DNA of 64,000 nt from Bacteroidetes bacterium GWE2_42_24 (GCA_001768515.1 MEOA01000045.1:97406-161405), one strand, 5' to 3'. Shown: positions 48,987 through 64,000, counted from the first letter of the stretch. A program made the numbers and translations. The notes: generated by a model not told the origin, from the sequence alone.

Positions 48987-51566
48987 TTACATCTTCCGCT
49001 CCGGGTACAATTCATCCCACCATGCCGGATCATCCTGCAACCACTTGGCGAACCAGGCAAAGATAGTGTTCTGCCACTTGATTCTTGGTTTGTAGCTTAA
49101 TATCTGATGATTTTGTTCATCGAATTCAATCAGTTCTACTTTTTTGCCAAGAAGGGTCAACGCGGTAAATAGCTGATGGCTTTCAGCCGTCGGTACATTG
49201 GTGTCTTTGTTGCCATGAAGCAACAGAATGGAATTTTGTACTTTATCGGCATTAAAGAGCGGACTTTGATTGGCATAAAACACGGGATCATTCCATGGGA
49301 ATTTATCTGCTGTGGCAGCGCTGCTATAGAGATAACCCCAATAGCCTTCGCCCCAGTAGCTGCTTAGATTGCTGATACCGGCATGGGCAATGGCTGTCCT
49401 GAAAATATCGGTACGGGTCTGAAGCAACATCGTCATGAAGCCACCATAACTGGCCCCAATACAACCAACGCGGGTGCTGTCGGCAGCCGGGTGAGTGCGC
49501 AGGAACTTTTTTGTTCCTTCAATAATTTGATCTGCGGTAGTTGTACCCCAGTTGTTTACATGACGAGCCGCGAATTCTGCTCCATAACCCGTGCATCCAT
49601 CCGGGTTGAGGGTATATACTATGTAGCCCATGGCGGCAAACAGATTTTTGGGATACCTCCCTTCGAATGAACGATTGATAGGGCTTGTGCCTGCATAGTA
49701 ATAAACGATGACAGGGTATTTTTGAGCAGGATTAAAATCAGGGGGATAAAAGACCATTCCATCAATTGAATCGCCATTTTCTGTGGTGAAGACATAATCC
49801 TCGACATTCCCGAAGGCAATGTCCCTGAAGAAGCTTTTGGATGGGTTGGCTGCCGGTGAGGGCAAATTTTCTGATACTGTTGTAGTCCATGCCACCGAAG
49901 GAGCACTTACTGAAGTTCCAAAAGCTGCAATTCTGCCGGTGAGTGGCGAAACAGCCATTCCTGAGGTCACCTCTGCCATTCCGGTAATCTTTCTGAATGA
50001 AGTCCCTTTAAGATCGGTGACAAAGATGTCGGCTCTTGTACGGTTTTCCGTCAGCAACACGATCTGTTGCCCGTTGGCAGCCCATGCGGCTTCGTTTACT
50101 TTCGGGTTGAAGTTACGCGTTAGCGGTGTTATCTCACCTGAGGCCAAATCATACAGGAAAGCCTGCGTGTCGTACTCATTTGGGATGGTGCCTTCTGGCA
50201 ATACATTGCCGATGTTATTGAACAGGGTAGGGGCGCCTGTAACAAGCAGGGTTTTGTCGTCAGGCGAAAGCGTTACAGCGGCTCCGCCGGCGAAGTCCCA
50301 TATTCTGGTCACCACACCCGACAGGAGATCGAGACGATACAATTGTTGACGTGAATAGGGGCGGGTTGTGAAATCAACGTCTGAAGTAGAAAACAAGATG
50401 AAACTGCCGTCATGAGCTATCGACTGTAAATCTGTACTACGATAGCCCCAGGTGAGCCGGTCGTGTATTCTGGTCTCAAAACAATAGCGGCCCAGCAGTG
50501 ACCGGTTACGGTACCATGGCCAGCGATCGTTCGGGTTTTCAATATGGCGGGCAATATCTTTTTCCTTAGGCCCGTCTTCACTGATACTATATATAAGGAA
50601 TTTCCCGTCAGGTGACCAGCCATAGTTGTCAACTTTGTCAAAACCTCCGGTGATGCTCTTCTTGCCGGTGGCGAGGTTTTCGATCACAAATTGTTTCCCT
50701 TCACCATTGCTTTGAAGGTAGCTAATGGCTCTGCCGTCGGGAGTAAAGTTGATGCTGCTTATTTTATCATCCGTGTTGCTCCATACCAGATGGTGATCGC
50801 TGAAGGCATAGATGCCGGTTTCGCTTTCCGACTTTCCCTCGCCTTTAAATACTGTGTTAAAATTAAGACGGTAGAATTCACCTGAATTGCTGATGTCACA
50901 GCCGGTAACAGAAGTTCCTTCGAGTACATGAGCCAGATCGATTGATTGCCCGGGGTTGGTTGTAAAGGTGATGTCTTTGTTGGATGTTTCAAACGAAAAG
51001 CCCTCCTGTTTGCCGCCATCAACTGATTGGTCTGCCAGTAGTTTTACCAGTAGCAGGTGTTTTCCCCGGGTGAGTTTGGCTGAAGGTTTCCCCGTGGCGG
51101 GTTTGCCATCTGAGGGGCTCCCTGACGCAAGTTTCTCGCCGTTGAGCCATAATTCGTATGTGAAGCTGCTGCTGATGTCAAATTCTACAGAGGCGTAGCG
51201 TGGTAAGGTGACATAAACTGCACCAAGCCAAAGTGTTTTTGATTTATCGTTCCCGGTGACCGGTGTGAACCTCCCTTTTGTGAACGGTTGTATTTGCCAT
51301 TTCTGTCCGCCGAAAGGTGACAAACGACTGCTTTCAGGCAATGCAGTATCTGATGGGAGTTGAATAGCATTTAATAGTAACGCACTGTTGAATTTCTTGC
51401 CGTTGATGTCGGGCAATGTATCGAATAATGGGGCAGAAGTGACAACTGGACCTGCTACCAGCCATTCGGCTGGTTTGTTGCGGGCTGTCGAATTCTGGCT
51501 ACTGACTGATATTGAAAATATGAGTATCAGAACAGAAACCAGGACTAATGCAATTGGTTTTCTCAT
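48987..51566 (-). CDS. Secreted S9 family (prolyl oligopeptidase/acylaminoacyl) peptidase
   Basis: Signal peptide, beta-propeller repeats (WSPDGK), GASYGG nucleophile, HG.KD.NV, NH catalytic His. Confidence 0.92.
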   Translation of the reverse strand: MRKPIALVLVSVLILIFSISVSSQNSTARNKPAEWLVAGPVVTSAPLFDTLPDINGKKFNSALLLNAIQLPSDTALPESSRLSPFGGQKWQIQPFTKGRFTPVTGNDKSKTLWLGAVYVTLPRYASVEFDISSSFTYELWLNGEKLASGSPSDGKPATGKPSAKLTRGKHLLLVKLLADQSVDGGKQEGFSFETSNKDITFTTNPGQSIDLAHVLEGTSVTGCDISNSGEFYRLNFNTVFKGEGKSESETGIYAFSDHHLVWSNTDDKISSINFTPDGRAISYLQSNGEGKQFVIENLATGKKSITGGFDKVDNYGWSPDGKFLIYSISEDGPKEKDIARHIENPNDRWPWYRNRSLLGRYCFETRIHDRLTWGYRSTDLQSIAHDGSFILFSTSDVDFTTRPYSRQQLYRLDLLSGVVTRIWDFAGGAAVTLSPDDKTLLVTGAPTLFNNIGNVLPEGTIPNEYDTQAFLYDLASGEITPLTRNFNPKVNEAAWAANGQQIVLLTENRTRADIFVTDLKGTSFRKITGMAEVTSGMAVSPLTGRIAAFGTSVSAPSVAWTTTVSENLPSPAANPSKSFFRDIAFGNVEDYVFTTENGDSIDGMVFYPPDFNPAQKYPVIVYYYAGTSPINRSFEGRYPKNLFAAMGYIVYTLNPDGCTGYGAEFAARHVNNWGTTTADQIIEGTKKFLRTHPAADSTRVGCIGASYGGFMTMLLQTRTDIFRTAIAHAGISNLSSYWGEGYWGYLYSSAATADKFPWNDPVFYANQSPLFNADKVQNSILLLHGNKDTNVPTAESHQLFTALTLLGKKVELIEFDEQNHQILSYKPRIKWQNTIFAWFAKWLQDDPAWWDELYPERKM

Positions 51567-51631
51567 GCAAATCTGGAGTTTAATTTGGTGACGAAATTTA
51601 ATGAATAAGAAATCTGAATTTCTTAAAGAGG

Positions 51632-54600
51632 TTAACTATTTACCTGTGTTGTGGGAAGAATAAACATAAACTGGCTCCCTTCTCCCTGCCGGCTTGTGGC
51701 CCAGATACGTCCATTGTTTCTGGTAATGAACTCATGGCAGAGAATGAGCCCCAGGCCCGTTCCTGCTTCATTGGCCGTTCCTTCGGTTTTTACTTTTTCG
51801 CCGGTTTTAAACAGTTTGGCAAGGTCAGAGGTAATAATTCCTGTCCCATGATCTTCGACGGTTACCTTTAGGTAGTTTGTAGTTGCATTGTCGGCAAGAT
51901 CGGGATGGCCAGGCTCAAGAATCTCTGTTGTCAATGCGACAATCGAGCCCGGGTAGGAGAATTTGATGGCATTGGTGAGCAGGTTTCTGATAACAGTTCT
52001 TACCATGTTAAGGTCAGCAAAGACCCAACTGTTTCCCTGCTGACTGGTTTCGAATTTTATCCCTTTTGCCTGCGCCTGGGGAGCAATCACCTGAAGGCTG
52101 TTGGTGATGGGTATGTTGATGTCGATGGGCTGAGGGTCGAATTGAAGGCTTCCTGTTTGCGACCTTGCCCATTCCAGTAAGTTATTCAGCAACCGGAAGG
52201 CACTCTGAGCGCCTATTTCTATCTGCCCGATGTATTCTTTTTTTATAGTATCCGACAACTCATCATAATCATGCGATAGGATGTCGGCATAGCCGAGGAT
52301 AATGTTGAACGGGTTCTTGAGGTCGTGGGCCAGAATGCTGAAGAACTTATCCTTGGTTGCATTAAGATCTCTGAGTTGGGATTCACTGTCGATCAGCATT
52401 CTTTGCGATTCGCGTTCTTCGCTTATGTCGCGGATAACAAGCATCCCGAGCGTAATTTCCTGATTGGGTTCTATCACCGGGACTGCCTGTATCTGACATA
52501 GCCTGTTGGCGAAAGTGATTTCTGCCATCGGGTGATGACCTTCAAACGACTTGTTCATCATGTCGGTGATGGTTCTGTTATCCTCCTCCGAATGAATAGG
52601 AAACCCGGAGAATTTCCCTTCAAGCGACATCGTCTGGAATCCCATTTCTGAAAGCAGGGGTCCCTCGGTAAGAATATACTTTTTACTGCGGTCGTAAAGT
52701 AATACAGCGGTTTGAGGTAGTTGCCTGACCAGTTCACGATACATGTTTTTTCGGCGTTGCAGCTCGGTCTCTGTCTGCTTCTGGAGGGTGATGTCTTCTT
52801 TTATAGCGATGTATTGAGTGATTTGGTTGTCGCTGTTCTTTACCGGGGTAATCAGCGCGTTCTCCCAATACAGTTCCCCGTTCTTGCGGCGGTTCAGGAA
52901 CTCTCCTTTCCATGGTTCGCCACCGGAGATGGTTCGCCACAGGTTTTTGTAAAAGGTTTCATTATGCCGGCCCGATTTCAGGATGGCCGGTTTCTGCCCA
53001 ATAGCTTCATCGCTTGTATACCCGCTAATTTGTGTGAATTTCTGATTTACATACGTGATGACTCCGGCCACATCGGTCATTACAACCACAACCGCGTTTT
53101 GTTCTACTGCCGTTCTAAGCAGGATGTTTTCCTGTACTACCTTTTTAAGTCGCGTGATGTCACGGATGGCCGTAATATTTACTGTCCTCCCTTTAAACTG
53201 CATCGGTCTGTTCAAAATCTCAACCTGAACCGGATCCCCCGTGCATAATAAAGAGGTTTGAAATTCACCTTCAGTTTTCTCATTAAAAACAAGCGAGAGC
53301 CTGGTGAGGTCATCTTCAGGGAAACAATCACTGATCCGTTTGGTGTTGAGCTCCGCCTCCGTTATCCCCAGAAGATTCCGAAAAGACTGATTTGCCATGA
53401 GAATTCGCCCATTGAGGTGGATGATGATGCCCTCGAAAGTGGAATTTGATAATTCACGGAAATGACGTTCGCTTCTCTTTTCATACCGGTAAAGCAGGTA
53501 GATTAATATGAGCGCAACGAACGCTGAAATCGAAATGATGATTAATATCCGGAGACGGTTGCTTGCCTTCTCTATAGTTTTATTGGTCTGGTATTCGATT
53601 TGTAATGCATCGAGTGCCGATCTGACCTCTTCAGTACGGTTTGATTTGAATGAGTTAATCAGCGTGTCTGTGGCAGAACGCAATTCTTCATTGTAATAGG
53701 CGAGGCTGTCGTTGTGGGAAGCATTGATAAGCCACTGGCACTTTAACTGAACCGATTCATAATACTCTTCAATTAGATTTATCTTCTTGCCCAGTTTTAG
53801 GGAAATGTTCATGTACTTCTCTGCTTTCTCGTACGCGCCCGCATTGTGAAGAAATTTTGCCAGACGCATGCTGGCAAGCAACATTCCCCGCTTGCTCCTG
53901 CACTTTTCATATTGAGCATAAGATGCTTCATACGAGCGTGTTGCCACTTCAATCTTGCCTGAACTCTCTGCCGCGACGCCCAGGTTAAATAAAGCAGCAC
54001 ATACGAGGGTTGAATCGTAACGGTCATGCTTCTTTTTGTTGTTCATCACGAAAAGGGCTTCCCGTGTTACCTCTTCTGCCCGGGCATAATCTTTCAGACT
54101 GATGTAAGCCTGACCTATGTATATCTTGGAATGGGCAATCAGATAAGGGTCGCTCATTGTCTTCCTGACCTTCAATGCACGATTGAACCATACAAGGGCT
54201 GAATCAGGTTGTTCCCTGGCCTGAAATGTCAGGCCAATGTTGTTCATTGCCAATGCTGTGCCATGGGTGTCTTTGGCTGATATGAACATTTTCAGTTGCT
54301 TCTGGTAATCATGCGATGCCATCTCGTAGAATCCCTGCGCGAAGAACGTGTTGGCGATGTCGCTGAGCGAATAAGCCTGTCCTTTAATACTCCCGGCTTC
54401 CTGAAAAAAACGGTACCCCTCCATCAGGTATTTCAAGGCGAGGCTATACTGCTCTTTTGATTGATAGTACACGCCAAGATCGTTATTGATATGCCCAAGT
54501 CCTTCGAGGCTTCCATGCTTTTTTTCCCATTCAAGAATTTGAAAAAGGATGGCTGTCGGATCATCCGGATAGGCTCTCTTCTTAAATTGGTCCCGTAGCA

Positions 54601-54757
54601 TCTTTAGCTTTGCGGAATCCGGATCGTGGGTGCTCCTGCTAAGTACTCCCAGCCAGGAAGAAGCCATGCACTCTGCCGGCAGGGTTATGCTCAGCAACAG
54701 GCTGATGAGCATAAGCAGGAGTGGCGTTTTGTATGATATATACCGGTTTAAATTCAT
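51632..54757 (-). CDS. TPR-TM-PAS histidine kinase (orphan)
   Basis: Periplasmic TPRs, TM helix, about 3 PAS domains (W.GEF.NRRKNGELYWE), AHDLKNPF H-box, GTGLGL. Confidence 0.9.
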   Translation of the reverse strand: MNLNRYISYKTPLLLMLISLLLSITLPAECMASSWLGVLSRSTHDPDSAKLKMLRDQFKKRAYPDDPTAILFQILEWEKKHGSLEGLGHINNDLGVYYQSKEQYSLALKYLMEGYRFFQEAGSIKGQAYSLSDIANTFFAQGFYEMASHDYQKQLKMFISAKDTHGTALAMNNIGLTFQAREQPDSALVWFNRALKVRKTMSDPYLIAHSKIYIGQAYISLKDYARAEEVTREALFVMNNKKKHDRYDSTLVCAALFNLGVAAESSGKIEVATRSYEASYAQYEKCRSKRGMLLASMRLAKFLHNAGAYEKAEKYMNISLKLGKKINLIEEYYESVQLKCQWLINASHNDSLAYYNEELRSATDTLINSFKSNRTEEVRSALDALQIEYQTNKTIEKASNRLRILIIISISAFVALILIYLLYRYEKRSERHFRELSNSTFEGIIIHLNGRILMANQSFRNLLGITEAELNTKRISDCFPEDDLTRLSLVFNEKTEGEFQTSLLCTGDPVQVEILNRPMQFKGRTVNITAIRDITRLKKVVQENILLRTAVEQNAVVVVMTDVAGVITYVNQKFTQISGYTSDEAIGQKPAILKSGRHNETFYKNLWRTISGGEPWKGEFLNRRKNGELYWENALITPVKNSDNQITQYIAIKEDITLQKQTETELQRRKNMYRELVRQLPQTAVLLYDRSKKYILTEGPLLSEMGFQTMSLEGKFSGFPIHSEEDNRTITDMMNKSFEGHHPMAEITFANRLCQIQAVPVIEPNQEITLGMLVIRDISEERESQRMLIDSESQLRDLNATKDKFFSILAHDLKNPFNIILGYADILSHDYDELSDTIKKEYIGQIEIGAQSAFRLLNNLLEWARSQTGSLQFDPQPIDINIPITNSLQVIAPQAQAKGIKFETSQQGNSWVFADLNMVRTVIRNLLTNAIKFSYPGSIVALTTEILEPGHPDLADNATTNYLKVTVEDHGTGIITSDLAKLFKTGEKVKTEGTANEAGTGLGLILCHEFITRNNGRIWATSRQGEGSQFMFILPTTQVNS

Positions 54758-55173
54758 TACAGCTTGATTGACAGGAAATGTCGGTTAAAGATAATCCGAA
54801 ACCAGGGTTTTGTAATGCACATTTTTCAACATGCGAATTTTAAAACCTTCATGATACCGGTACGTGAAACAGATTAACGTTTTCAGTTTGTTGATGATTA
54901 TTTCGTTATACGCTGATTAACCGACCCGGGTTACTAGAAGAAAAGGTCATATAGTCTGCTAATATAAAACATAAGATTGCAATGATTGTTGATACCGGGA
55001 AAATAATTTGCATAAAGACCCGGTTGAGCCATTAGCATCTCCTTAATGCACATCATATAACGGGTGATTGGTTGAAACGATGCTGACTTTGTTATTGCCG
55101 GTACCTTGCCCAGCCGGGATTTCTGTTTGCCGCCGAAGGTCATTGATTAAACAATGCTTGTCGGAAGTATGTG

Positions 55174-55202
55174 AAAAAAAAGGCCGGACAAAATGTCCGG
55201 CC
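55174..55202 (-). terminator. Terminator after the oxidoreductase operon
   Basis: A8-GGCCGGACA-aaa-TGTCCGGCC. Confidence 0.8.
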
Positions 55203-55225
55203 CTGATTGAAATATAAGTATCGAA

Positions 55226-55768
55226 TTAAACTTTCTCCACAATTTCAAGCCCTTTGGCAATGGCCTTCATATTCATGGGGATAGATTTATGATGTCGTGC
55301 CGGAAGCGATTTGGCCAATCCTTTTTCAACATTCTCCATTTTAACAATGGGTTTCAGCTTCAGAAAAGCGCCGAGCACAATCATGTTGAAGGTCTTGGCC
55401 GATCCCATGGCTGTAGCTGCTTCAGTTGCCTGAATTCTGTAGATGTTGATGTCGGTACGTGAAGGATGTCTGGTGATCCCGTTGGGGTCGTATAACAAGA
55501 TACCACCCGGTTTCACGGTTTTCTCAAACTTATCCATCGACTGCTGGTTGAGGATGATGGCTGTGTCGAATTGATTCAGAATGGGCGAACTGATGCGTTC
55601 GTCGCTCAGAATCACGGTAACGTTGGCTGTGCCGCCACGCATTTCAGGGCCATAGCTGGGCATCCAGGCTACTTCCTGATCTTGCATGATGCCTGAGTAG
55701 GCCAGAATTTTCCCCATAGAGAGAACACCCTGTCCGCCGAATCCGGCTATAATAATTTCTTCAGTCAT
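55226..55768 (-). CDS. 2-oxoacid:ferredoxin oxidoreductase gamma subunit
   Basis: AGFGGQG, PSYGPEMRGG, NMIVLGA. Confidence 0.93.
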   Translation of the reverse strand: MTEEIIIAGFGGQGVLSMGKILAYSGIMQDQEVAWMPSYGPEMRGGTANVTVILSDERISSPILNQFDTAIILNQQSMDKFEKTVKPGGILLYDPNGITRHPSRTDINIYRIQATEAATAMGSAKTFNMIVLGAFLKLKPIVKMENVEKGLAKSLPARHHKSIPMNMKAIAKGLEIVEKV

Positions 55769-55793
55769 TGTATTACGTTTTTCTGATTTTCAA

Positions 55794-56582
55794 TTATTTT
55801 ACCAATTCACCGTTCATTTTAATGTCGCCCAACTCGTAGAACGGGAACATGTTGTTCACCATCCATTCATTGGCTTTTACAGGTGAAAGCTTCCAACCTG
55901 AATTACAGTTGCTCACTATTTCAACAAAGCTTACGCCTTTGTTGAGCTTCTGGTTTTCAAAAGCCATACGGATGGCCTTTTTAGCTTTGCGGACGGCGGC
56001 AGGCGTATGCACTGCCTGACGGGTAACCATGTAAGTGCCGGGAAGTGTGGCCACAATTTCGGTCATCTTCAGGGGGTTTCCCATGATCTGGGTATCACGT
56101 CCGTAAGGAGAGGTGCTGGTGGGCATGCCGGGCAGCGTGGTAGGAGCCATCTGTCCGCCTGTCATTCCATAAATCCCGTTGTTGATGAAGATGATAACAA
56201 TGTTCTCACCACGGTTGCAGGCATGAATCGTTTCAGCCGTTCCTATGGCAGCAAGGTCGCCATCACCCTGATAGGTGAATACGAACTTCCCGGGATAAAG
56301 ACGTTTGATGGCTGTTGCCAGCGCGGGTGCACGTCCGTGAGCTGCCTGCTGCATATCGATATCAAAGAAGTTGTAGGCAAGTACCGAACAACCAACCGGC
56401 GCAACGCCAATGGTGTTGTTCTGGATGCCCATCTCGTCAATCACTTCAGCAATAAGGCGGTGGGCTGTACCATGACCACAACCTGGGCAATACGACATGA
56501 CGTTGTCGGTAAGGACTTTCGTTTTCGAATAAACGAGGTTTTCGGGTGTCCTGATTTCGGGTTTATCAAATGTTTCTGTCAT
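55794..56582 (-). CDS. 2-oxoacid:ferredoxin oxidoreductase beta (TPP-binding) subunit
   Basis: YCPGCGH, HGRA, GDGDLAAIG...NNGIYGMTGGQ. Confidence 0.93.
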   Translation of the reverse strand: MTETFDKPEIRTPENLVYSKTKVLTDNVMSYCPGCGHGTAHRLIAEVIDEMGIQNNTIGVAPVGCSVLAYNFFDIDMQQAAHGRAPALATAIKRLYPGKFVFTYQGDGDLAAIGTAETIHACNRGENIVIIFINNGIYGMTGGQMAPTTLPGMPTSTSPYGRDTQIMGNPLKMTEIVATLPGTYMVTRQAVHTPAAVRKAKKAIRMAFENQKLNKGVSFVEIVSNCNSGWKLSPVKANEWMVNNMFPFYELGDIKMNGELVK

Positions 56583-56584
56583 GG

Positions 56585-57667
56585 TTATCCTCCAATAATT
56601 TTAGTTTCAAGTGCTTTTACCACTTCGTCGGGTGTGGGGACAATGCCGCCGTAACGACCGAAATGTTCAACTTTTACTTTGCCGTTAACAGCCAGTCTGA
56701 CGTCTTCTACCATCTGTCCGGCACTCATTTCAACCGACAGAATTCCTTTAACCTGTGAGGCCAGCTTGCTGATGGCTTCCGAAGGATAAGGGAAGAGGGT
56801 GATGGGGCGCAGCAATCCTACCTTGATCCCCTTTTTACGGGCAGTCTGGACGGCTTTCTGGCAAATGCGGGCGCTCGATCCATAAGCTACCAGCAGGTAG
56901 TCGGCATCCTCGGTATCGAAGGTTTCGAATCGTACTTCATTGTCCTGCATCTGTTTGTATTTAGCCTGCAGCTTAATGTTGTGAAGTTCCTGTTTTGCTG
57001 AATCAAGTTCGAGCGATGTGATGATGCGGCGGGGGCCATTCTTCGGACGGCCTGTTGTTGCCCATGGGCACTCTGTGGCCACTTCTTCATCGGTGCGCCG
57101 TGAAATCTGCGGGTTCAATTCTACCTTTTCCATCATCTGGCCTATGACGCCATCAGATAAGATCAATACCGGGTTGCGGTATTTGAAGGCAAGTTCAAAG
57201 CCAAGACCGGCAAAGTCTGCCATTTCCTGAACTGAAGCAGGGGCCAGTACAATGAGCTTGTAGTCGCCGTGTCCACCGCCTTTTGTTGATTGGAAATAGT
57301 CGCTCTGTGAAGGTTGAATAGTTCCTAACCCGGGGCCGCCACGAACAACATTAAGTATAAGGGCCGGAAGCTCGGCTCCGGCTATGTATGAAATGCCTTC
57401 CTGTTTAAGGCTTATCCCCGGGCTTGATGACGAGGTCACCACCTTTTTTCCGCAGGCGGCACCACCATATACCATGTTGATGGCAGCCACTTCGCTCTCG
57501 GCTTGTAGAACCACCATACCGGTGCGCTCGTAAGGTTTCTGAGCCATAAGATACTCCAGTACTTCGCTTTGCGGCGTGATGGGGTACCCAAAGTAGCCGT
57601 CAACGCCTGCCCTGATGACAGCTTCGGCAAATGCCTCGTTGCCCTTCATTAATTTGAGTTCTTTCAT
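56585..57667 (-). CDS. vorB: 2-oxoacid:ferredoxin oxidoreductase alpha subunit (VorB-like)
   Basis: GNEA.AEA, YFGYPITPQSE, QAESE, SSSPG.SLKQE, RGGPGLG. Confidence 0.9.
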   Translation of the reverse strand: MKELKLMKGNEAFAEAVIRAGVDGYFGYPITPQSEVLEYLMAQKPYERTGMVVLQAESEVAAINMVYGGAACGKKVVTSSSSPGISLKQEGISYIAGAELPALILNVVRGGPGLGTIQPSQSDYFQSTKGGGHGDYKLIVLAPASVQEMADFAGLGFELAFKYRNPVLILSDGVIGQMMEKVELNPQISRRTDEEVATECPWATTGRPKNGPRRIITSLELDSAKQELHNIKLQAKYKQMQDNEVRFETFDTEDADYLLVAYGSSARICQKAVQTARKKGIKVGLLRPITLFPYPSEAISKLASQVKGILSVEMSAGQMVEDVRLAVNGKVKVEHFGRYGGIVPTPDEVVKALETKIIGG

Positions 57668-57697
57668 CCCTGTAATGATTTTTTGGTTTGAATCTCG

Positions 57698-57919
57698 TTA
57701 AACTTTTGCACGGTAAACTGTGATGACCCCGTCGGGGCATACAACAGCACAGTTGGCGCAACCTACACAGTTGCCGTTTACCTTGATTGCATAATTATAG
57801 CCTTTGCTATTGACCTCTTTCGACATCCCGATTACTTCCTGCGGACACGCCGTGTTGCACACTTCGCATCCCTTGCATTTTTCGATGTCAATTACAATGT
57901 CTCCTGTGATTTTTGCCAT
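57698..57919 (-). CDS. 2x[4Fe-4S] ferredoxin (delta subunit)
   Basis: CKGCEVC...CP and CVGCANC...CP; start at ATG 57919. Confidence 0.93.
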   Translation of the reverse strand: MAKITGDIVIDIEKCKGCEVCNTACPQEVIGMSKEVNSKGYNYAIKVNGNCVGCANCAVVCPDGVITVYRAKV

Positions 57920-58465
57920 AATGGTGTGATTTGTAGGTGCTCTGTAATTATTATTTAGATGCACGAAAGTACTGATTTTACCCCAAAGCGCCTAATTTTC
58001 ACCCTTCAATTTGTATAACGCCTCTTAATTTATAACTGATATAAATAAATGATAAACGCCTATGCAATTGATACCTCGTCACTTTTAGTGTGAATTTGAG
58101 AACCGTCCTGAATCACGTGTTCGAATTTGCTCATTAGCTGTATTGGTTGCTGTCGGTACAAATCCAAAAAGTAACGATCAGTGTGGCTGTGATGGAACGG
58201 TGAAATGAAAAACTGGTTCCTGATCCTGATCAGGGCATGTACCAGCTGCCATCACTTTTTGTTCTAAGTAAAATGTTGTCAGGATATTACTTATAATTAA
58301 CTGAGCGCGTTGATTGTGCCAACCAATTGATATTTAATGTGCAGGCTATCGCCGGTGCGGCCGTCGCGTGTTCCGGGTTAGCAGGTGTATTGCCGAACTG
58401 TTTTCGCGACAATTCAGGGGTTATGCCTCCCCTTTTTTCGGGAAAAGTAATGATGAAAATTTGTC

Positions 58466-58898
58466 ACCACTAAAACTGTGCCAAAATTTTTACATAATTA
58501 ATCCTCCCACATATAAAAATTACTCCATAGTTACTACAGCCATAGGCGATACATAAGAAAAACCTATCTTTGACCTAACTTTGGCCTATCTTTGGGGTAG
58601 CTCAGCTATATTTTCGACTTCTAAATAACATATGATCAATTAGATAAAATATTGAGTTTTGTGACAGCGTGTTACGAAAAAATTTTGAAAAAAGTTGAAA
58701 TTTTTTCTCAGGAAGGGTGAAACAAGCGTAATAATGCGTCCAAAATTTGGAATTACATTCAAGAGACAGACAATAAAAAGTCGGGCATCGTTTCCTGATA
58801 CAATTATGAAAAATGGTTTAGATGAAGGTTAGATGAATAGGTAATTTCAAATGAAAATTGCGCGCCGCATGATAGCCTGAAAGAAGCATATCCATTCA
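58466..58898 (-). repeat. Dispersed non-coding module, copy 3 (inverted)
   Basis: Reverse complement of 58530-58563 matches the core at 33/34 nt; similarity to copy 1 extends about 430 bp. Confidence 0.92.
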
Positions 58899-59519
58899 AA
58901 TATAGGGGTTCATTCACAATAATGGTGCTAGTTGTTATTCATTGAATCCCGGTTAGGTTGGTTGACCGTGCAGCCCGATGAATGGTGGAACCAGGAAATC
59001 AGGAAATGCTGTACCTGCCGGTGACACACCCTGTCGGGAAGTTGGCCCGCAGGTAAAAAAAGTCATTGCTGCTCCATGATTCCGCAAGATTTTCTACTTT
59101 TGGCTTCAATTGAGTGCCGGTAGTTCACAATCCGTCTGCAAGGCTTATCAGGTGCCGAACCCCGGGAAAGGGGAGCGGCCATGATAGTGGTAAAAGGCCT
59201 TTTTTCTGCAAAAAGTCCTGCACGCGTTTTTGCTCATAACGACTTCACGACCAAAAAGTTAGTACAATTATGCTGTAACTGACGTGGCAGAGCTGTGGGG
59301 GGGGGATGCGCTATTGGAATGGATGGAGGTAAGTTGATATGAAAGAGATGCGAAAGCGCGAATGTCCCGTTAACCATTAAAGTCATACAACGAGCCGGTT
59401 AGTGAATTCTTTTAACTGAAGTGATTCTTTCTGTGTAATATGAATCGGTTGAATAAATTGAGTATTTTTGACAGCACCGTTTACCTTAAGGTGATTGAAT
59501 ATAAGTTATCAGATAAACG

Positions 59520-59742
59520 GCAGTAAAGTGGTGAATGAATTAGAGAAAATCATGTACTATTGGTTGAAAAGGAACCTTCTGATGTTTTTTTTTCGGCAAA
59601 TCGTTAACGATGCTGAGAGACTTCTGCCAATTATGGCTCATGGAGGATTGGTTGTCCGGGAGGTAGCGGTCAACTTTCAGAACGATGAAAAAAACCCGAC
59701 CAAAGCATTCAGATAATTATTAATCCCTATGACATGCTATAG
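59520..59742 (+). pseudogene. Possible decayed 3' end of a tyrosine integrase
   Basis: 59701-59742 reads QSIQIIINPYDML*, similar to the ..SIQKIKSPFDDL* tails I recall for Bacteroidota XerD-like/integron-type integrases. An upstream frame gives YYWLKRN where LHWLRHS would be expected. Confidence 0.3.
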
Positions 59743-59774
59743 TTATTTATTTACGGAAAACCGCCCTAAATGTG

Positions 59775-59960
59775 ATGATATAAGGCCAAATTGGGGGTAT
59801 ATCAGCAGGTTTGGGGGAATATATACGAGTTGTGTTTCATGCTAAGAAAGACCGCGCAACAAACGCCAACGCACATTTGGCACATTTGCAAGCCCTAACC
59901 CACAAGCTGATGCTTCAGCTTGCAAAAGAGCCGAATTTTTGCCAACGCACATTGATAGAC
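59775..59960 (+). other. attI/gene-cassette-like junction plus structured leader
   Basis: TTGGGGG(n)TAT direct repeats 20 bp apart, then GA-GTTGTGT (GTTRRRY-like), then nested hairpins and a 13-bp direct repeat before the ATG. Confidence 0.4.
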
Positions 59961-59967
59961 TAACAAT

Positions 59968-60624
59968 ATGGATGAAAACGAAAAAATAAGAAGTTATAAG
60001 GACAAATTAAGGATTTTCTTGATTCTATATGTGTTCAGTGAACCGCATACTGATAATGAATTACCTAATGTTAGAAAGATTTTTCAAAGTGAGCAAAGAA
60101 TACAAAAAATAGACTTTTTATTACGGAATCCAGATTACTTATGTCACGAATTACTTGAGAAAGCTAAATCCAATATAAGTTTACAACCAGAAATTAAGGC
60201 AATTGTAAAAGATATATTCGCTAGTAAAGAACCAATTTTCAAAAGATTGGAAATGGAAAGGTTTTTCTTTGGAGCCTATGAGGATATTGATGATGTAATT
60301 GCATTTTTAAAAGGTATTGGTTTTATTGATTTTTCAAGTAAAAGGAGGGCAGATTTAAAAACAACTATAGAAAAAAAATACTATATAACACAGTATGCAA
60401 TTGACAAATTTGAAAATGAAATTGAATCTTTATCCTCGATTCAATGGTACCTTAATAGATGTAATTTGATAAAAAAATATTTTGGAGATTTAAGTGGGAG
60501 CCAATTACGTATTTCTCAATATCAAATTGATGAGTATAAGAACACTTCATACAATGAATATATCGGAAGCATCAATGGAATTGTAAGTTCTGAGTTCTAC
60601 AACCTTTATTCAGAAACATTATGA
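59968..60624 (+). CDS. Hypothetical protein, wHTH-like 'middle component' of a putative ABC-three-component/Lamassu-like system
   Basis: RIQKIDFLLR..Y, RFFFGAY..IDD.IAFL..IGFI, KYYIT wing pattern; ATGA-coupled to the ATPase. Confidence 0.7.
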   Translation: MDENEKIRSYKDKLRIFLILYVFSEPHTDNELPNVRKIFQSEQRIQKIDFLLRNPDYLCHELLEKAKSNISLQPEIKAIVKDIFASKEPIFKRLEMERFFFGAYEDIDDVIAFLKGIGFIDFSSKRRADLKTTIEKKYYITQYAIDKFENEIESLSSIQWYLNRCNLIKKYFGDLSGSQLRISQYQIDEYKNTSYNEYIGSINGIVSSEFYNLYSETL

Positions 60625-62738
60625 GTTTTGATTTCAAAAAGTTCACGAACGATTTATACGAAGAGTATAAAGAATCATTAACTAAAGAAGCAGTTGATGA
60701 TTTACTCAACTTAAATGATGAGTATAGTAAAGATACACCTGTTTCAACAGGCAAAAGACTTGTAATTAATAATGTCAGAATTATTGGAGAAAAGGAAATT
60801 TCTCCTAATCAGGATTACTCAGGTGCAAAAATTGATTTTTCTTTACCGTTTACATCAGGCATTAATATGTTAATTGCGGATAACTTGAAAGGAAAATCTA
60901 GTATTTTCAAAGTAATAAAATATGCCTTAACAGGTTCAAATTCACTTAAAGCAAATATTAAAAAGTGGATTCATCTCGCTTTCGTTAACTTCAGTATTAG
61001 TGATAAAAAATACACGGCTTATTTAGATTTATCTAAACGAAGCTTAACTGCTTATTTGCTTAATGGTTTTATTAGTTCCGTTGAGGAATTGGAAACCTAC
61101 TCAGAGGAAATAATATTTGAAACAAATAGTGAAACCACATATCAGGATAGAATGAATGATTTTTTCTTTAATCAATTCACATATTATTCCTTAAAGTGGA
61201 CTCAAAAATCCTCGCAAAAGGATAAAGACGAATTACTTGAAGCAGGCGCAAGTTGGAAGACTTATTTTAAATCAATTCTTTTGGAGTCAAAAGATAGTAA
61301 TAGCTTGATGTATGGAGACCAAGGGAAAAAAGTATTTCAGATGCTTTTAGGTATTGAATTAACTTACCCAATAAATCGTTTAAGCATAAAGAAGGATATG
61401 CTAAATTTTGAAAAGGCTAAAGAACAATCTTATTCCGAGCGACAGAAAAAACAAGCTGAAAGTAATTTATTAAAACACCAAAGCCGACTGAAGGAAATAG
61501 AATCAGAAATTAAAGAAATTCAAACAAAAAATAATGAAAAAATTAATCTGGCTCCAATTTATAAAGAATATAATAGCACTTTAGAACTTATTAATTCTGA
61601 AAATAGAAAAGCTCAAAAAATTGTGACGGACAGACAAAATAAGAATAAAGAACTTAACTCATTTAAAAATAAACAGGAAACAAATCAAGGTGAAATAAAT
61701 AGGTTATCTAAGGAACTTGAAAAGTTAATTAAACAAAGAAATGATTTAAAGGAGTATGTTGAAATTGGTGTGTTGTTCTCAAATTTAGACATTAAACATT
61801 GCCCATCCTGTAATCATGATGTTACTGAATCGCAGAAAAAAAACAGACTCGAAGAACACAAATGTTCTTTATGTGGGGACAGTATCGAGGATGAAAACCA
61901 TGAAATTGACACAGATGTATATGATGAAAAAATAGCAAACCTAGAGCTTTCAATTCAAAGCTTTGAAAAGGAGATTGATAGTCTTAAAGTTCAAAATAAA
62001 GAGTTACAGGAATATTATAGTAACAGTTATAATGAGCTAATAGGTATTGATAAAGTAGCAGATACGATTAAAGATGTATCTTCTATTTCGTCTAGGTTGC
62101 AGGAATTAGAAGAGATTATCAATTCTTCAAAAACTGAAATAACTCCTGACGATGATAAAAAAGAAAAATTAATAGCAGAAAGAGCAGTAATTCAATTTCA
62201 AATAATTGATTTATTGAATCAAAAACCTAAAACAGTAACAGATTATGAAACTAAAATTCAATTGTTGAATTCTGCAATTGAAAAACTTTCAGAAGAGCGA
62301 CTCTCATTAGGTGCAAGAGTAATTAATCGATTATCAAAATTAATGACTGATGAGATTCAGGCTCTTGGTTTAAAATCTATAACAGAGGTTAAAATAGATG
62401 ATAATTTTGAAGTTCAATACAAGCAAGATAATGACTATATAACTTTTGAGAATATTGCTGAAGGAGAGCAACTAAGAGCAAAAATTGCCTTTTATTTAAG
62501 CCTTATACAATTAGATATTGAATTTAATTTTGGAAGGCACACACGTTTACTAATAATTGATAGTCCTGGTAAAGAGGAAGCTGATAAAAAATATCTTGAT
62601 GGGCTCTCTCAAGTATTAAATAGCATTGATAGCAGGTACAGTGATTATTTACAAATATTAATAGGTACAGCCGAAAGGCAATTGTCAGGCATTCTTAAAA
62701 ATCAAAAAGAATTTGCCATTGATGAATATGTATTTTAA
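60621..62738 (+). CDS. SMC/Rad50-like ABC ATPase with coiled coil and Zn-hook-like centre
   Basis: Walker A ADNLKGKSS, long coiled coil with CPSC..CSLC, signature-like IAEGEQ, Walker B LLIIDSP. Confidence 0.88.
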   Translation: MSFDFKKFTNDLYEEYKESLTKEAVDDLLNLNDEYSKDTPVSTGKRLVINNVRIIGEKEISPNQDYSGAKIDFSLPFTSGINMLIADNLKGKSSIFKVIKYALTGSNSLKANIKKWIHLAFVNFSISDKKYTAYLDLSKRSLTAYLLNGFISSVEELETYSEEIIFETNSETTYQDRMNDFFFNQFTYYSLKWTQKSSQKDKDELLEAGASWKTYFKSILLESKDSNSLMYGDQGKKVFQMLLGIELTYPINRLSIKKDMLNFEKAKEQSYSERQKKQAESNLLKHQSRLKEIESEIKEIQTKNNEKINLAPIYKEYNSTLELINSENRKAQKIVTDRQNKNKELNSFKNKQETNQGEINRLSKELEKLIKQRNDLKEYVEIGVLFSNLDIKHCPSCNHDVTESQKKNRLEEHKCSLCGDSIEDENHEIDTDVYDEKIANLELSIQSFEKEIDSLKVQNKELQEYYSNSYNELIGIDKVADTIKDVSSISSRLQELEEIINSSKTEITPDDDKKEKLIAERAVIQFQIIDLLNQKPKTVTDYETKIQLLNSAIEKLSEERLSLGARVINRLSKLMTDEIQALGLKSITEVKIDDNFEVQYKQDNDYITFENIAEGEQLRAKIAFYLSLIQLDIEFNFGRHTRLLIIDSPGKEEADKKYLDGLSQVLNSIDSRYSDYLQILIGTAERQLSGILKNQKEFAIDEYVF

Positions 62739-64000
62739 TGGATAAATTAGTTGACATATCAAATTTTAAAACATTAAGTACTCCTGAGAAACTTAATTTC
62801 TTAGATGATAGTTTTGTTGATTCAATTAAAGATTTAGATGAAAAAACTTTAAATGTCTCATTACGGACTATTATCCTAGATTCTGATGAAAATAGTTACG
62901 TAAGGAAAATTGTTTTAGCGTTATTTACTGAACTAGTGGTTCTAGGTAGATTAAAAACTCGTCACGCATTTAGTTTATTAATTGATGATTGGAAGCCTAG
63001 TACTGATATTTTTTTGGAACTTCAAAGGCTTAAGGATCTGCTCTTATATTATGAAGTATCTATTGAAGAGAGTGAAGAAATTGAATCTGTTTTTAAAATT
63101 GGTATAGAAAACTCAGAATCAGAAATAATAGGACAGAGTCTATTTAATCTTGGCATTATTTCATTAGTTAAAGCACTAAGGTCAACAATTGAAGAAGAAT
63201 ATAAATCAACCCTTGATAAAAGTGATTTTTATTTCCAAAAATCAATTGAGCAGATTGAAAACCGCGTTGACTCTTTTTTTTATCAAAAGGTCATTCTGAT
63301 ATTAAAGGAACTTTTATTAAGCAAATGGGGTTCTGCAGTTCAATACATAAAGGAACTTGGGAATTATCTTTTTATAAAAGAGGCATTCTCATTCAAATTT
63401 GATTTCGATAATTTACAGTATGGATTCTATAAAATATTAACCTCATTGCAACAAATTTGTATTCAACAACCAAAAAACTGGATTGATTACAGATTAGAAC
63501 TCGATAAAGTGTTTTTACACTTTTCCGAGATTACAAATTCTAAGGTTACAAATCGACTTAATGAGAAATCACTTTTGGATAAATTGGGAATACATCTTAA
63601 AGGCAGAATACTTGAACCTTATTTTGTAATTAATCTAAGTACTGAAATTACTAAAATAGATGTTTTGCTTAGGGATATTCGTGAAGGTTCTTCTGAATTC
63701 AATTTTCTTCAATATCTTAAAACCCTTATAGAAGGAACAAATAAAAAAAAAGTTGAGTTTGAAAGTCTTGAATCAGGATTTAAAAATCTTTTCCCAAATC
63801 AAAACCCTAAATTAATTGCCCAAGTAATTAATGAAATTAAAGTACCATCCGATTACATAAGAGCATTTGAATTACTTACCCAAAAGAATAACGACAACTT
63901 AATAGGTCATATAATGTTTGCTTGTTCTAAACTACAAGGAGATAAAAAATATTGGGGCAAGGATGTTTACGAAAATGACAGAAATAGATTTATTGCTACG
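62738..64000 (+). CDS. Large helical (HEAT/TPR-like) protein, truncated by the window end; candidate effector (absent from the ORF track)
   Basis: ATG overlaps the ATPase stop (TAATG); 421 open codons MDKLVDISNF...ACSKLQGDKKYWGKDVYENDRNRFIAT run to the edge. Confidence 0.85.
   Translation, partial: MDKLVDISNFKTLSTPEKLNFLDDSFVDSIKDLDEKTLNVSLRTIILDSDENSYVRKIVLALFTELVVLGRLKTRHAFSLLIDDWKPSTDIFLELQRLKDLLLYYEVSIEESEEIESVFKIGIENSESEIIGQSLFNLGIISLVKALRSTIEEEYKSTLDKSDFYFQKSIEQIENRVDSFFYQKVILILKELLLSKWGSAVQYIKELGNYLFIKEAFSFKFDFDNLQYGFYKILTSLQQICIQQPKNWIDYRLELDKVFLHFSEITNSKVTNRLNEKSLLDKLGIHLKGRILEPYFVINLSTEITKIDVLLRDIREGSSEFNFLQYLKTLIEGTNKKKVEFESLESGFKNLFPNQNPKLIAQVINEIKVPSDYIRAFELLTQKNNDNLIGHIMFACSKLQGDKKYWGKDVYENDRNRFIAT

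Follow-up and report, generated by a model that had tools for sequence, protein, structure and literature searches.

The DNA analyzed here is a 64,000-nucleotide (nt) stretch of Bacteroidetes bacterium GWE2_42_24 (GCA_001768515.1 MEOA01000045.1:97406-161405), referred to below as the window, and its right end carries three overlapping open reading frames (ORFs) on the + strand, of 218, 705 and 565 amino acids (aa), that very probably constitute a Lamassu defense system; coordinates are window positions unless they are given for locus L001, which continues beyond the window. The first gene, lmuC (59968-60624), encodes the 218-aa small 'middle component' of Lamassu and ABC-three-component (ABC-3C) systems, and the second, lmuB (60621-62738), encodes a 705-aa ATP-binding cassette (ABC) ATPase that resembles Rad50 and SMC (structural maintenance of chromosomes) proteins, with a split head and a coiled coil. 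The third, lmuA, has two parts: codons for residues 1-401 (62738-63940), which form an all-helical solenoid in an AlphaFold2 (AF2) model, and the beginning of a putative restriction-endonuclease-like C-terminal domain, residues ~402-565, which occupies 63941-64000 inside the window. The lmuA reading frame is open at the window edge after 421 aa, and the contig sequence retrieved from downstream completes it at 565 aa, with its end at L001 5435 (gene L001 3738-5435), equivalent to window position 64435 and 435 nt beyond the window. The lmuC/lmuB junction is an ATGA overlap at 60621-60624 (sequence TTATGAGT, read directly), and the lmuB/lmuA junction is a TAATG at 62736-62740 (sequence TTTTAATGG), such that lmuA overlaps the lmuB stop codon by 1 nt. 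An earlier note on this DNA had described both overlaps, ORFs of 218, 705 and more than 421 aa, and a shift to AT-rich sequence, and all of these are found as described. The GC content in 500-nt windows is 0.39-0.54 over 50000-59999 and 0.278-0.312 from 60000 to the window end, a fall from about 0.45 to 0.28 where the three genes begin; low GC persists to the contig end, and the genome mean is 0.435.

All three proteins match Lamassu models when the collection of PADLOC-DB v2.0.0 (2023), whose catalogue table carries no subtype names, is run on them. LmuC matches PDLC03872 (E 1.6e-66, residues 5-216 on model positions 8-216 of 220), LmuB matches PDLC03864 (E 3.3e-163, residues 1-705 on model positions 1-657 of 657), and LmuA matches PDLC03853 with E 8.9e-43 for the part within the window and 2.4e-49 at full length; LmuA residues 35-525 pair with model positions 97-626 of 655, and the C-terminal domain is thereby spanned too. 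In Pfam, LmuB matches AAA_23 (5e-9) and LmuC gives ABC-3C middle component 4 (MC4) at E 0.057, below the cut-off; in NCBIfam, LmuB has weak ASRP and Rad50/SMC-type matches below the cut-off and LmuC has none, and neither Pfam nor NCBIfam has a match to LmuA. A feature search of the Atlas with LmuC leads to MC2/MC4/MC5 clusters at 0.84-0.87. The general plan is also that of Lamassu: LmuB is SMC/Rad50-like, with its Walker A (residues 86-94) and its signature and Walker B region (613-649) flanking a CxxC-bearing middle, LmuC is small, LmuA has a putative effector and a predicted docking module, and the three-gene operon recurs across taxa.

These matches support the kinship with Lamassu and ABC-3C systems that the earlier note had proposed from the combination of an SMC-like ATPase, a small component and an effector. 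That note had also put the operon forward as a candidate new system, which we reject because the 2023 PADLOC catalogue already models LmuC, LmuB and LmuA and all three proteins match these models strongly; a full match to a described system with this gene order, which the note had itself named as grounds for giving up the proposal, is present at the level of catalogue models. A genuinely new SMC-ATPase defense system, distinct from Lamassu and ABC-3C, is accordingly very improbable, even though the lmuC-lmuB-lmuA order and the C-terminal effector differ from the published descriptions in their available portions (PMC12663957; PMC10586767), the first residue of Walker A is Ala, the solved Lamassu chains show no match at the sequence level, and LmuA belongs to no Pfam or NCBIfam family. 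Set against these features are the strength of the three matches, which for LmuB and LmuC run end to end, the extension of the LmuA model over the C-terminal domain, and the Walker B and CxxC variants, which are published traits of short Lamassu systems.

The operon is found as a unit in other genomes. Full-length LmuA has 74 relatives among 8000 scored candidates, and where they are named they are 'hypothetical', with the exception of P0073, a 'Terminase-like family protein' in one source; the only precomputed Pfam domain among them belongs to P0074, a leucine-rich repeat (LRR) protein whose match spans 27% of the query. When each species was represented by one genome, scanning gave 216 pattern matches and 112 confirmed relatives, from which the best 80 loci were kept and searched by tblastn with the window proteins. 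The N-terminal part of LmuA is present in 33 of these 80, and the order LmuC-LmuB-LmuA on one strand is kept in 31 of the 33; the two exceptions are L019, which starts at a contig end, and L016, which has a truncated LmuA (250-565) and no LmuB or LmuC upstream. The earlier note had held that failure of the three genes to co-occur elsewhere would speak against a system, and they evidently do co-occur. The hosts, judged from record titles, are Bacteroidota, Bacillota, Acidobacteriota and Spirochaetota. Where the junctions could be measured from first-ATG starts (28 of the 31 loci), lmuC and lmuB overlap by 4 nt in 26 and lmuB and lmuA overlap by 1 nt in 18. Closer to home, this LmuB is found at E <= 1e-10 in one of 41 genomes, that of the source and in none of its 40 relatives (one of 34 if only good-quality genomes are counted), and this patchy distribution fits horizontal acquisition of the operon as part of an AT-rich defense island.

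Gene content, family matches, conservation and synteny are observed in this analysis, the fold class presented below is supported and the LmuC-LmuA contact predicted, and we consider the locus in all likelihood a Lamassu defense system; that the three genes are a Lamassu (ABC-3C) system with an lmuC-lmuB-lmuA layout, the reverse of the textbook lmuA-lmuC-lmuB, we hold with nearly the same high confidence. Published descriptions, in the portions available, place the effector at the N-terminus of LmuA, a docking C-terminal domain (CTD) at its C-terminus, and LmuC in mid-operon (PMC10586767; PMC12663957; 10.1101/2025.06.23.660979). The present operon does not have this layout: its order is C-B-A and the putative restriction-fold domain is C-terminal, so that the effector comes last, as had been remarked earlier, both in that lmuA is the third gene and in that the domain stands at the end of its product. 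The textbook layout is a usual trait and no formal criterion, and the present one is spanned by the PADLOC LmuA model. Short or type II Lamassu systems (LmuA-LmuC-LmuB; DdmABC of Vibrio cholerae; ABC-3C) share with this operon all three components, the division of the LmuB ABC head and its coiled coil, a degenerate Walker B, a variable number of CxxC motifs, a defense-island setting, and a LmuA made of one docking and one effector module. They differ from it in having the order A-C-B, whereas here LmuA is inverted, its solenoid dock being N-terminal and its effector C-terminal, Ala is the first residue of Walker A, the effector domain is without a Pfam model, and LmuB is 705 aa long. To our knowledge, the LmuA of every solved Lamassu complex begins with a Cap4 nuclease and ends in a small dock; unlike the solved LmuA CTDs, the dock here is a 400-residue helical solenoid in which no likeness to them is detected.

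Three observations count against the Lamassu assignment. No solved Lamassu chain is matched by the single sequences of LmuB or LmuC or by a LmuB profile, and the LmuC sequence finds just a chance-level TRAPPC3 row (E 0.21) among solved structures. The LmuA layout and the Ala of Walker A do not fit the published descriptions literally, as far as the available portions of these go (PMC12663957; PMC10586767). Finally, an internal stop or frameshift breaks LmuB in L013, LmuC in L022 and LmuA in L012, L017 and L040, and the cassette seems to have been lost by decay in some lineages. The present system is apparently complete and intact and probably of the 'short' Lamassu kind. It is an unremarkable representative of an established family, and its effector is of modest interest; what remains distinctive is the uncommon layout and an effector domain for which we found no name.

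The ATPase motifs of LmuB are well conserved in an alignment of the window protein with 21 of its 31 relatives (22 sequences in all). The Walker A or P-loop, A86-DNLKGKS-S94 (60876-60902, + strand), has A86, D87, N88, G91, K92 and S93 invariant in 22 of 22. W193-T-Q-K196 (61197-61208, +), a candidate Q-loop by its position, is likewise invariant throughout, as are C394, C397, C415 and C418, which form the two CxxC pairs at the coiled-coil apex (61800-61874, +) and make up a zinc-hook or zinc-ribbon-like element. The signature-like A613-E-G-E-Q617 (62457-62471, +) stands in for the ABC motif LSGGQ, with E614-Q617 invariant and A613 at least 90% conserved, and the Walker B, L643-LIID-S-P649 (62547-62567, +), has D647, S648 and P649 invariant in 22 of 22, placing Ser where the catalytic Glu usually lies and followed by an invariant K651-E-E653. 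The motifs are invariant in all 22 sequences and are therefore real traits of the clade, not decay, and each of the peculiarities listed in the earlier note (Ala in Walker A, AEGE, DSP and two CxxC pairs) is present. Short Lamassu LmuB proteins are reported to have a Walker B of the form hhhhD[Q/S/T/E], a Walker A of the form Gx4GK[S/T] and zero, one or two copies of CxxC, two copies being reported for short LmuB exclusively, and their mean length is 600 aa as compared with 800 aa in long Lamassu systems (PMC12663957). The window protein has the short-type Walker B (L-L-I-I-D647-S648) and two CxxC copies, its 705 aa fall between the two means, and its Walker A departs from the pattern in that A86-x4-G91-K92-S93 begins with an Ala that is invariant in 22 of 22. 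The classical P-loop pattern, [AG]x4GK[ST], admits Ala at this first position. Both the D-S form of Walker B and the presence of two CxxC copies are therefore already on record for short Lamassu.

A profile of the LmuB clade finds the Rad50 head in the PDB (E 9.7e-7), and this would agree with an operon that serves the mobile island itself or DNA repair, in a SbcCD-like role, instead of defense. The proposal that Lamassu descends from SbcCD, made in the available portion of one account (PMC12663957), points the same way. Such a role is nonetheless highly unlikely: family scans reveal no Mre11/SbcD-like phosphoesterase gene in the operon, which is patchily distributed (one of 41 genomes) and lies directly beside a Tiamat gene and a toxin-antitoxin-like pair, and members of the family elsewhere defend against phages, and protection against phage or plasmid for which both the LmuB ATPase and the LmuA effector are needed is shown for other Lamassu subtypes in the portion available of the relevant report (10.1101/2022.05.11.491447).

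The AF2 model of the whole LmuA protein (48-row alignment; predicted local distance difference test, pLDDT, 84.3; predicted template-modeling score, pTM, 0.64) contains solely helices through residue 401, after which an alpha-beta-beta-beta-alpha-beta-alpha-beta-beta-beta succession extends over residues 412-561. The rows that Foldseek shows for the full-length model are weak and HEAT/ARM-like (E >= 2e-3) and include no LmuA chain, and the 'HEAT/TPR-like N-terminus' of the earlier note is a reasonable description of this all-helical segment. Complex prediction with LmuC (20-row alignment) and LmuA 1-400 (48 rows) gives an ipSAE of 0.74, as compared with 0.01 for the best of three controls, and passes a mark that 58 of 80 solved complexes attain, as do 2 of 110 pairs that were mismatched; the runs agree in 67% or more of their contacts and partner pLDDT is at least 76. 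The predicted interface comprises LmuA residues 15, 23, 52-54, 57, 90-92, 95, 126-131 and 170-175 and LmuC residues 41-46, 108-117, 122-126 and 133-136, and lies on or beside conserved residues of both proteins, E51, N52, E129, E174 and N175 in LmuA and E42, Q46, D108, F113 and K136 in LmuC. The model supports a role for the N-terminal solenoid as the docking module for LmuC, and docking may extend to LmuB. A reason for caution is that the alignments were unpaired and that solved Lamassu complexes exist, so the score may partly reflect likeness to these; neither sequence nor fold likeness to the latter was detected.

The C-terminal domain of LmuA (the C-domain) was modeled alone as residues 395-565 (AF2, 36-row alignment), with pLDDT 88.3 and pTM 0.85. 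An exhaustive VIA-align search, in which 48161 chains were aligned and 50 rows are shown, reaches Z 7.6 at best, and 36 chains score Z >= 5. The titles of 15 of these 50 rows name restriction or nicking enzymes: BstYI, BspD6I (twice), EcoT38I, BamHI, OkrAI, EcoRI, SwaI, LlaBIII, SgrAI, Bse634I, FokI, AgeI, Ecl18kI and NgoMIV. About 19 further rows are nucleases that we take to have the same fold, namely CdiA-CT (three times), McrBC, HamA/Hachiman (twice), NucC (twice), Card1, Can2 (three times), Cdn1, SfsA, VC1899, SduA, Hjc, CinB and the solved LmuAB, and about 12 of the 50 are unrelated, for example acetyl-CoA carboxylase, gephyrin and LRRK2. What supports a restriction-endonuclease-like fold is the agreement of the rows with one another and not their strength. 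Like the PD-(D/E)xK defense nucleases (BamHI/BstYI-type enzymes, McrC, HamA, NucC, Can2/Card1 and Cap4-type LmuA), the domain as modeled has an alpha-beta-beta-beta-alpha-beta core in which helix 1 bears a Glu, strand 2 an Asp and strand 3 a second Glu. Other searches yield little: there is no Pfam or NCBIfam model for the domain, its profile gives chance-level rows in the PDB (best E 0.014, a glycosyltransferase), and a stand-alone relative has a weak HSDR_N_2 match (E 0.0068). Structure search of the Atlas finds template-modeling (TM) scores of 0.88-0.93 to unnamed clusters and to the C-termini of Roc-COR proteins, with no family covering the aligned part; leads to DUF8371 (0.85) and DpnII-MboI (0.82) are below the trust level of the tool.

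Conservation within the domain is concentrated in a set of polar residues. E412, N416, D432, Q433, E447, D449, E464, H479, K482, Y486 and D487 are invariant in all 36 C-domain sequences, with E412 placed on helix 1, D449 on strand 2, E464 on strand 3, and H479 and K482 on helix 2; the E, D, E and H remain invariant among 45 proteins of mixed architecture. The approach to a PD-(D/E)xK-like domain that the earlier note had sensed at the window edge is borne out in that E412, in 'YENDRNRF', is the invariant residue of helix 1, with most of the domain lying beyond the window. Position 466, two residues after E464, is Leu, Met or Phe in the 36 sequences and never Lys, so the pattern reads E from helix 1, D from strand 2, E-x-L from strand 3 and H-x-x-K from helix 2, and unlike the PD-(D/E)xK nucleases the third motif is E-x-L/M/F, with an invariant H-x-x-K on the next helix. 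The invariant K482 may substitute for the missing lysine of (D/E)xK, and in our reading the C-domain is most likely a nuclease that depends on metal and in which the lysine has shifted to the next helix; for nuclease activity as such our confidence is moderate.

Several results tell against the identification of this domain as a restriction-fold nuclease. Best Z scores of 7-8 in VIA-align are common for models without true relatives, and here nothing reaches Z 8; Foldseek with the C-domain has no match at E <= 1e-3, its top rows mixing YaeQ (2e-3) with tyrosine phosphatases and BstEII appearing at rank 18; and the D...(D/E)xK motif is absent, the lysine being replaced by Leu, Met or Phe, such that catalysis is not assured. 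Homology to the NOV_C domain of the neighboring Tiamat protein TmtA was also considered and rejected, with an hhalign probability of 0.1. A system that is Lamassu, but whose C-domain is an RNase, another hydrolase, or a non-catalytic module that binds or senses nucleic acid, would agree with the missing lysine, with Z scores of just 5-7.6 and with the heterogeneous Foldseek rows; if the domain is non-catalytic, killing would fall to the helical N-terminus or to an unseen partner. The matched CdiA-CT (5j4a), which is presumably a tRNase, and the weak Schlafen AlbA_2 match (E 0.002-0.004) on 300-aa Tiamat-linked proteins that share the domain are also in keeping with this. We regard it as the less probable course, given that E412, D449, E464, H479 and K482 are invariant across the Lamassu-, Tiamat-like- and Roc-COR-linked copies, which suggests an active site and not a scaffold, that the domain ends many NTPase sensor proteins, the typical position of an effector, and that no family match with a catalytic look is seen for the LmuA N-terminus; the Lys is also missing from the BamHI-type enzymes that the domain matches.

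The C-domain is far more widely distributed than the Lamassu operon described here. A profile search of 1.84 billion cluster representatives (clusters at 50% identity) finds 1380 proteins at E <= 1e-3, of which 1061 reach E <= 1e-10 and 342 reach E <= 1e-30. Of the best 150 of the 1380, 148 have the end of the match no farther than 20 residues from the C-terminus, P0163 and P0113 being the exceptions, and the proteins listed range from 134 to 1691 aa. A Pfam scan of 45 of the 150, chosen for lengths unlike that of LmuA, shows COR-A/COR-B in 13, Roc in 12, LRR families in 6-7, NACHT in two, nSTAND_NTPase5 in two, and AbiTii, HSDR_N_2, a pPIWI-associated nuclease domain and TPR in one each; none of these families spans the shared C-domain. 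Roc-COR/LRR and NACHT/STAND nucleoside triphosphatases (NTPases) of ~1300-1450 aa that end in the C-domain include P0093, P0099, P0103, P0106, P0123 and others, and at L064 (3476-7606) the domain ends a 1376-aa Roc-COR protein. PADLOC models run on ten such C-domain proteins leave seven without a match, P0086 and P0094 match the LmuA model, P0094 also matches LmuB models, and P0093 has a marginal mad8 row. The Roc-COR/LRR and NACHT/STAND proteins are candidate uncatalogued defense proteins. As a separate observation, P0094 (417 aa, metagenomic) has a LmuB head (model positions 1-130, 3.1e-33) fused directly to the C-terminal part of LmuA, and is probably a deletion derivative or an assembly artefact.

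A further association is seen in the genomic loci, where 47 of the best 80 match by the C-domain alone and 30 of these 47 have a TmtA-like match upstream on the same strand. In two Bacillota loci (L039 3528-7528 and L051 3513-7510) a gene for a 1030-1033-aa protein is followed by an abutting gene for one of 300 aa. The long protein is a GHKL ATPase that matches the PADLOC TmtA model over positions 4-610 of 1063 (1.7e-128), and no NOV_C is seen in it; the 300-aa protein consists of the C-domain and an N-terminal half with a weak SLFN_AlbA_2 match (E 0.002-0.004, below the cut-off), and in PADLOC it has a weak LmuA match and no other. Canonical Tiamat ends in a NOV_C PD-(D/E)xK nuclease, according to the available portion of its description (10.64898/2026.09.30.755639), and it is for this reason that the C-domain appears to stand where the nuclease normally stands. 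From these sequence comparisons the C-domain appears to be an exchangeable module of other NTPase-based conflict systems, and the platforms seem to be four: Lamassu SMC-like ATPases, NOV_C-less two-gene Tiamat-like GHKL proteins, Roc-COR/LRR GTPases and NACHT/STAND NTPases. We raise, as a tentative and rather doubtful generalization, the possibility that the domain is a widespread restriction-fold effector family with a relocated lysine (E...D...ExL...HxxK), swapped among four unrelated NTPase sensor platforms, in which the Lamassu clade would be 'inside-out', with the dock N-terminal, the effector C-terminal and the gene order C-B-A, a layout that does not appear in the available portions of the published structural descriptions. 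No name for the C-domain family was found, as far as the literature and family models could be checked.

The solved Cap4-type Lamassu systems provide a framework for how this operon might act. In the available portions of the published accounts, a LmuB dimer and LmuC sequester one LmuA, and DNA ends together with ATP release LmuA, which oligomerises into an active nuclease (PMC12663957; 10.1101/2025.06.23.660979). By analogy with the solved Vibrio, Salmonella and Bacillus complexes, a LmuB dimer and LmuC would here keep one LmuA inactive; foreign DNA ends, with ATP that the D-S Walker B head binds and slowly hydrolyses, would set it free, and freed LmuA would oligomerise, with its effector degrading nucleic acid and the infection being aborted. 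The ends would be swapped in the present clade, such that docking, and probably oligomerisation too, would belong to the N-terminal solenoid and cutting of nucleic acid to the C-terminal restriction-fold domain. Defense function, the sensing of DNA ends, the release and oligomerisation steps, and nuclease activity and its substrate are all proposed in this sense. As a system the operon adds little, Lamassu being well catalogued and the clade already having detection models. A clade whose LmuA starts with a large solenoid dock and ends in the effector does provide a test of the generality of the sequester-release-oligomerise mechanism, and the C-domain, which links Lamassu with Tiamat-like, Roc-COR and STAND proteins, could serve as a marker for uncatalogued defense genes.

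Immediately to the right of the operon, and outside the window, lies tmtA (L001 5488-8646; window-equivalent 64488-67646), which encodes a 1052-aa protein and begins 52 nt downstream of lmuA. TmtA matches PADLOC PDLC03967 (3.9e-275) and NCBIfam P_loop_sacsin (1.8e-17), gives Pfam NOV_C at E 0.017, below the cut-off, and has a D...E-x-K pattern at its C-terminus ('DFVI ... IEIKS'); it therefore has the GHKL/sacsin-type ATPase N-terminus and the C-terminal NOV_C nuclease of Tiamat, the NOV_C match being weak. The Lamassu operon resembles its neighbor in that an NTPase sensor is combined with a helical solenoid and with a restriction-fold domain at the C-terminus, but the ATPase is of the ABC class here and of the GHKL class in TmtA. 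A tblastn search for second copies in the genome finds none beyond this locus, save a weak GHKL-like match for TmtA on contig C61. Further along, at L001 10520-11190 (outside the window), a Gp49/HigB-like gene (119 aa, Pfam 5.2e-19) overlaps a HTH_3 gene (104 aa, 3.9e-13), likely a toxin-antitoxin or regulator pair. The AT-rich surroundings are a defense island. In Bacillus sp. MRMR6, a GHKL/sacsin-like N-terminus (L015 9009-9254; tblastn 34% identity, 3e-5) is likewise found ~350 nt downstream of the same Lamassu cassette, a second instance of Lamassu next to a Tiamat-like gene that could reflect mere clustering in defense islands.

To the left, a spacer of ~2 kb (57965-59967), with GC of 0.36-0.45 and ORFs of 73 aa at most, separates lmuC from a ferredoxin-like gene (57698-57964, - strand). 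No tRNA is present in 57000-64000 and Rfam has no match at E <= 0.01 in 57600-60100; insertion of the island beside a tRNA or a known RNA was considered and rejected, as neither turned up. A scan of 57900-60100 finds promoter-like sites (8 vs 5.9 expected) and terminator-like sites (2 vs 1.9) at numbers near chance. Just ahead of lmuC there is a 13-nt direct repeat in two exact copies (59865-59877 and 59941-59953, + strand), the second of which ends 14 nt before the lmuC ATG. It has two matches in the window as compared with 0.10 expected, none of 100 shuffles reached two, and it is a possible operator, promoter element or regulator site. Immediately upstream of the spacer, 55226-57964 on the - strand carries four co-directional genes, of 180, 262, 360 and 88 aa, which by eye look like a 2-oxoacid:ferredoxin oxidoreductase operon, the 88-aa protein having two CxxCxxCxxxCP motifs; this apparently core-genome DNA marks the left edge of the island.

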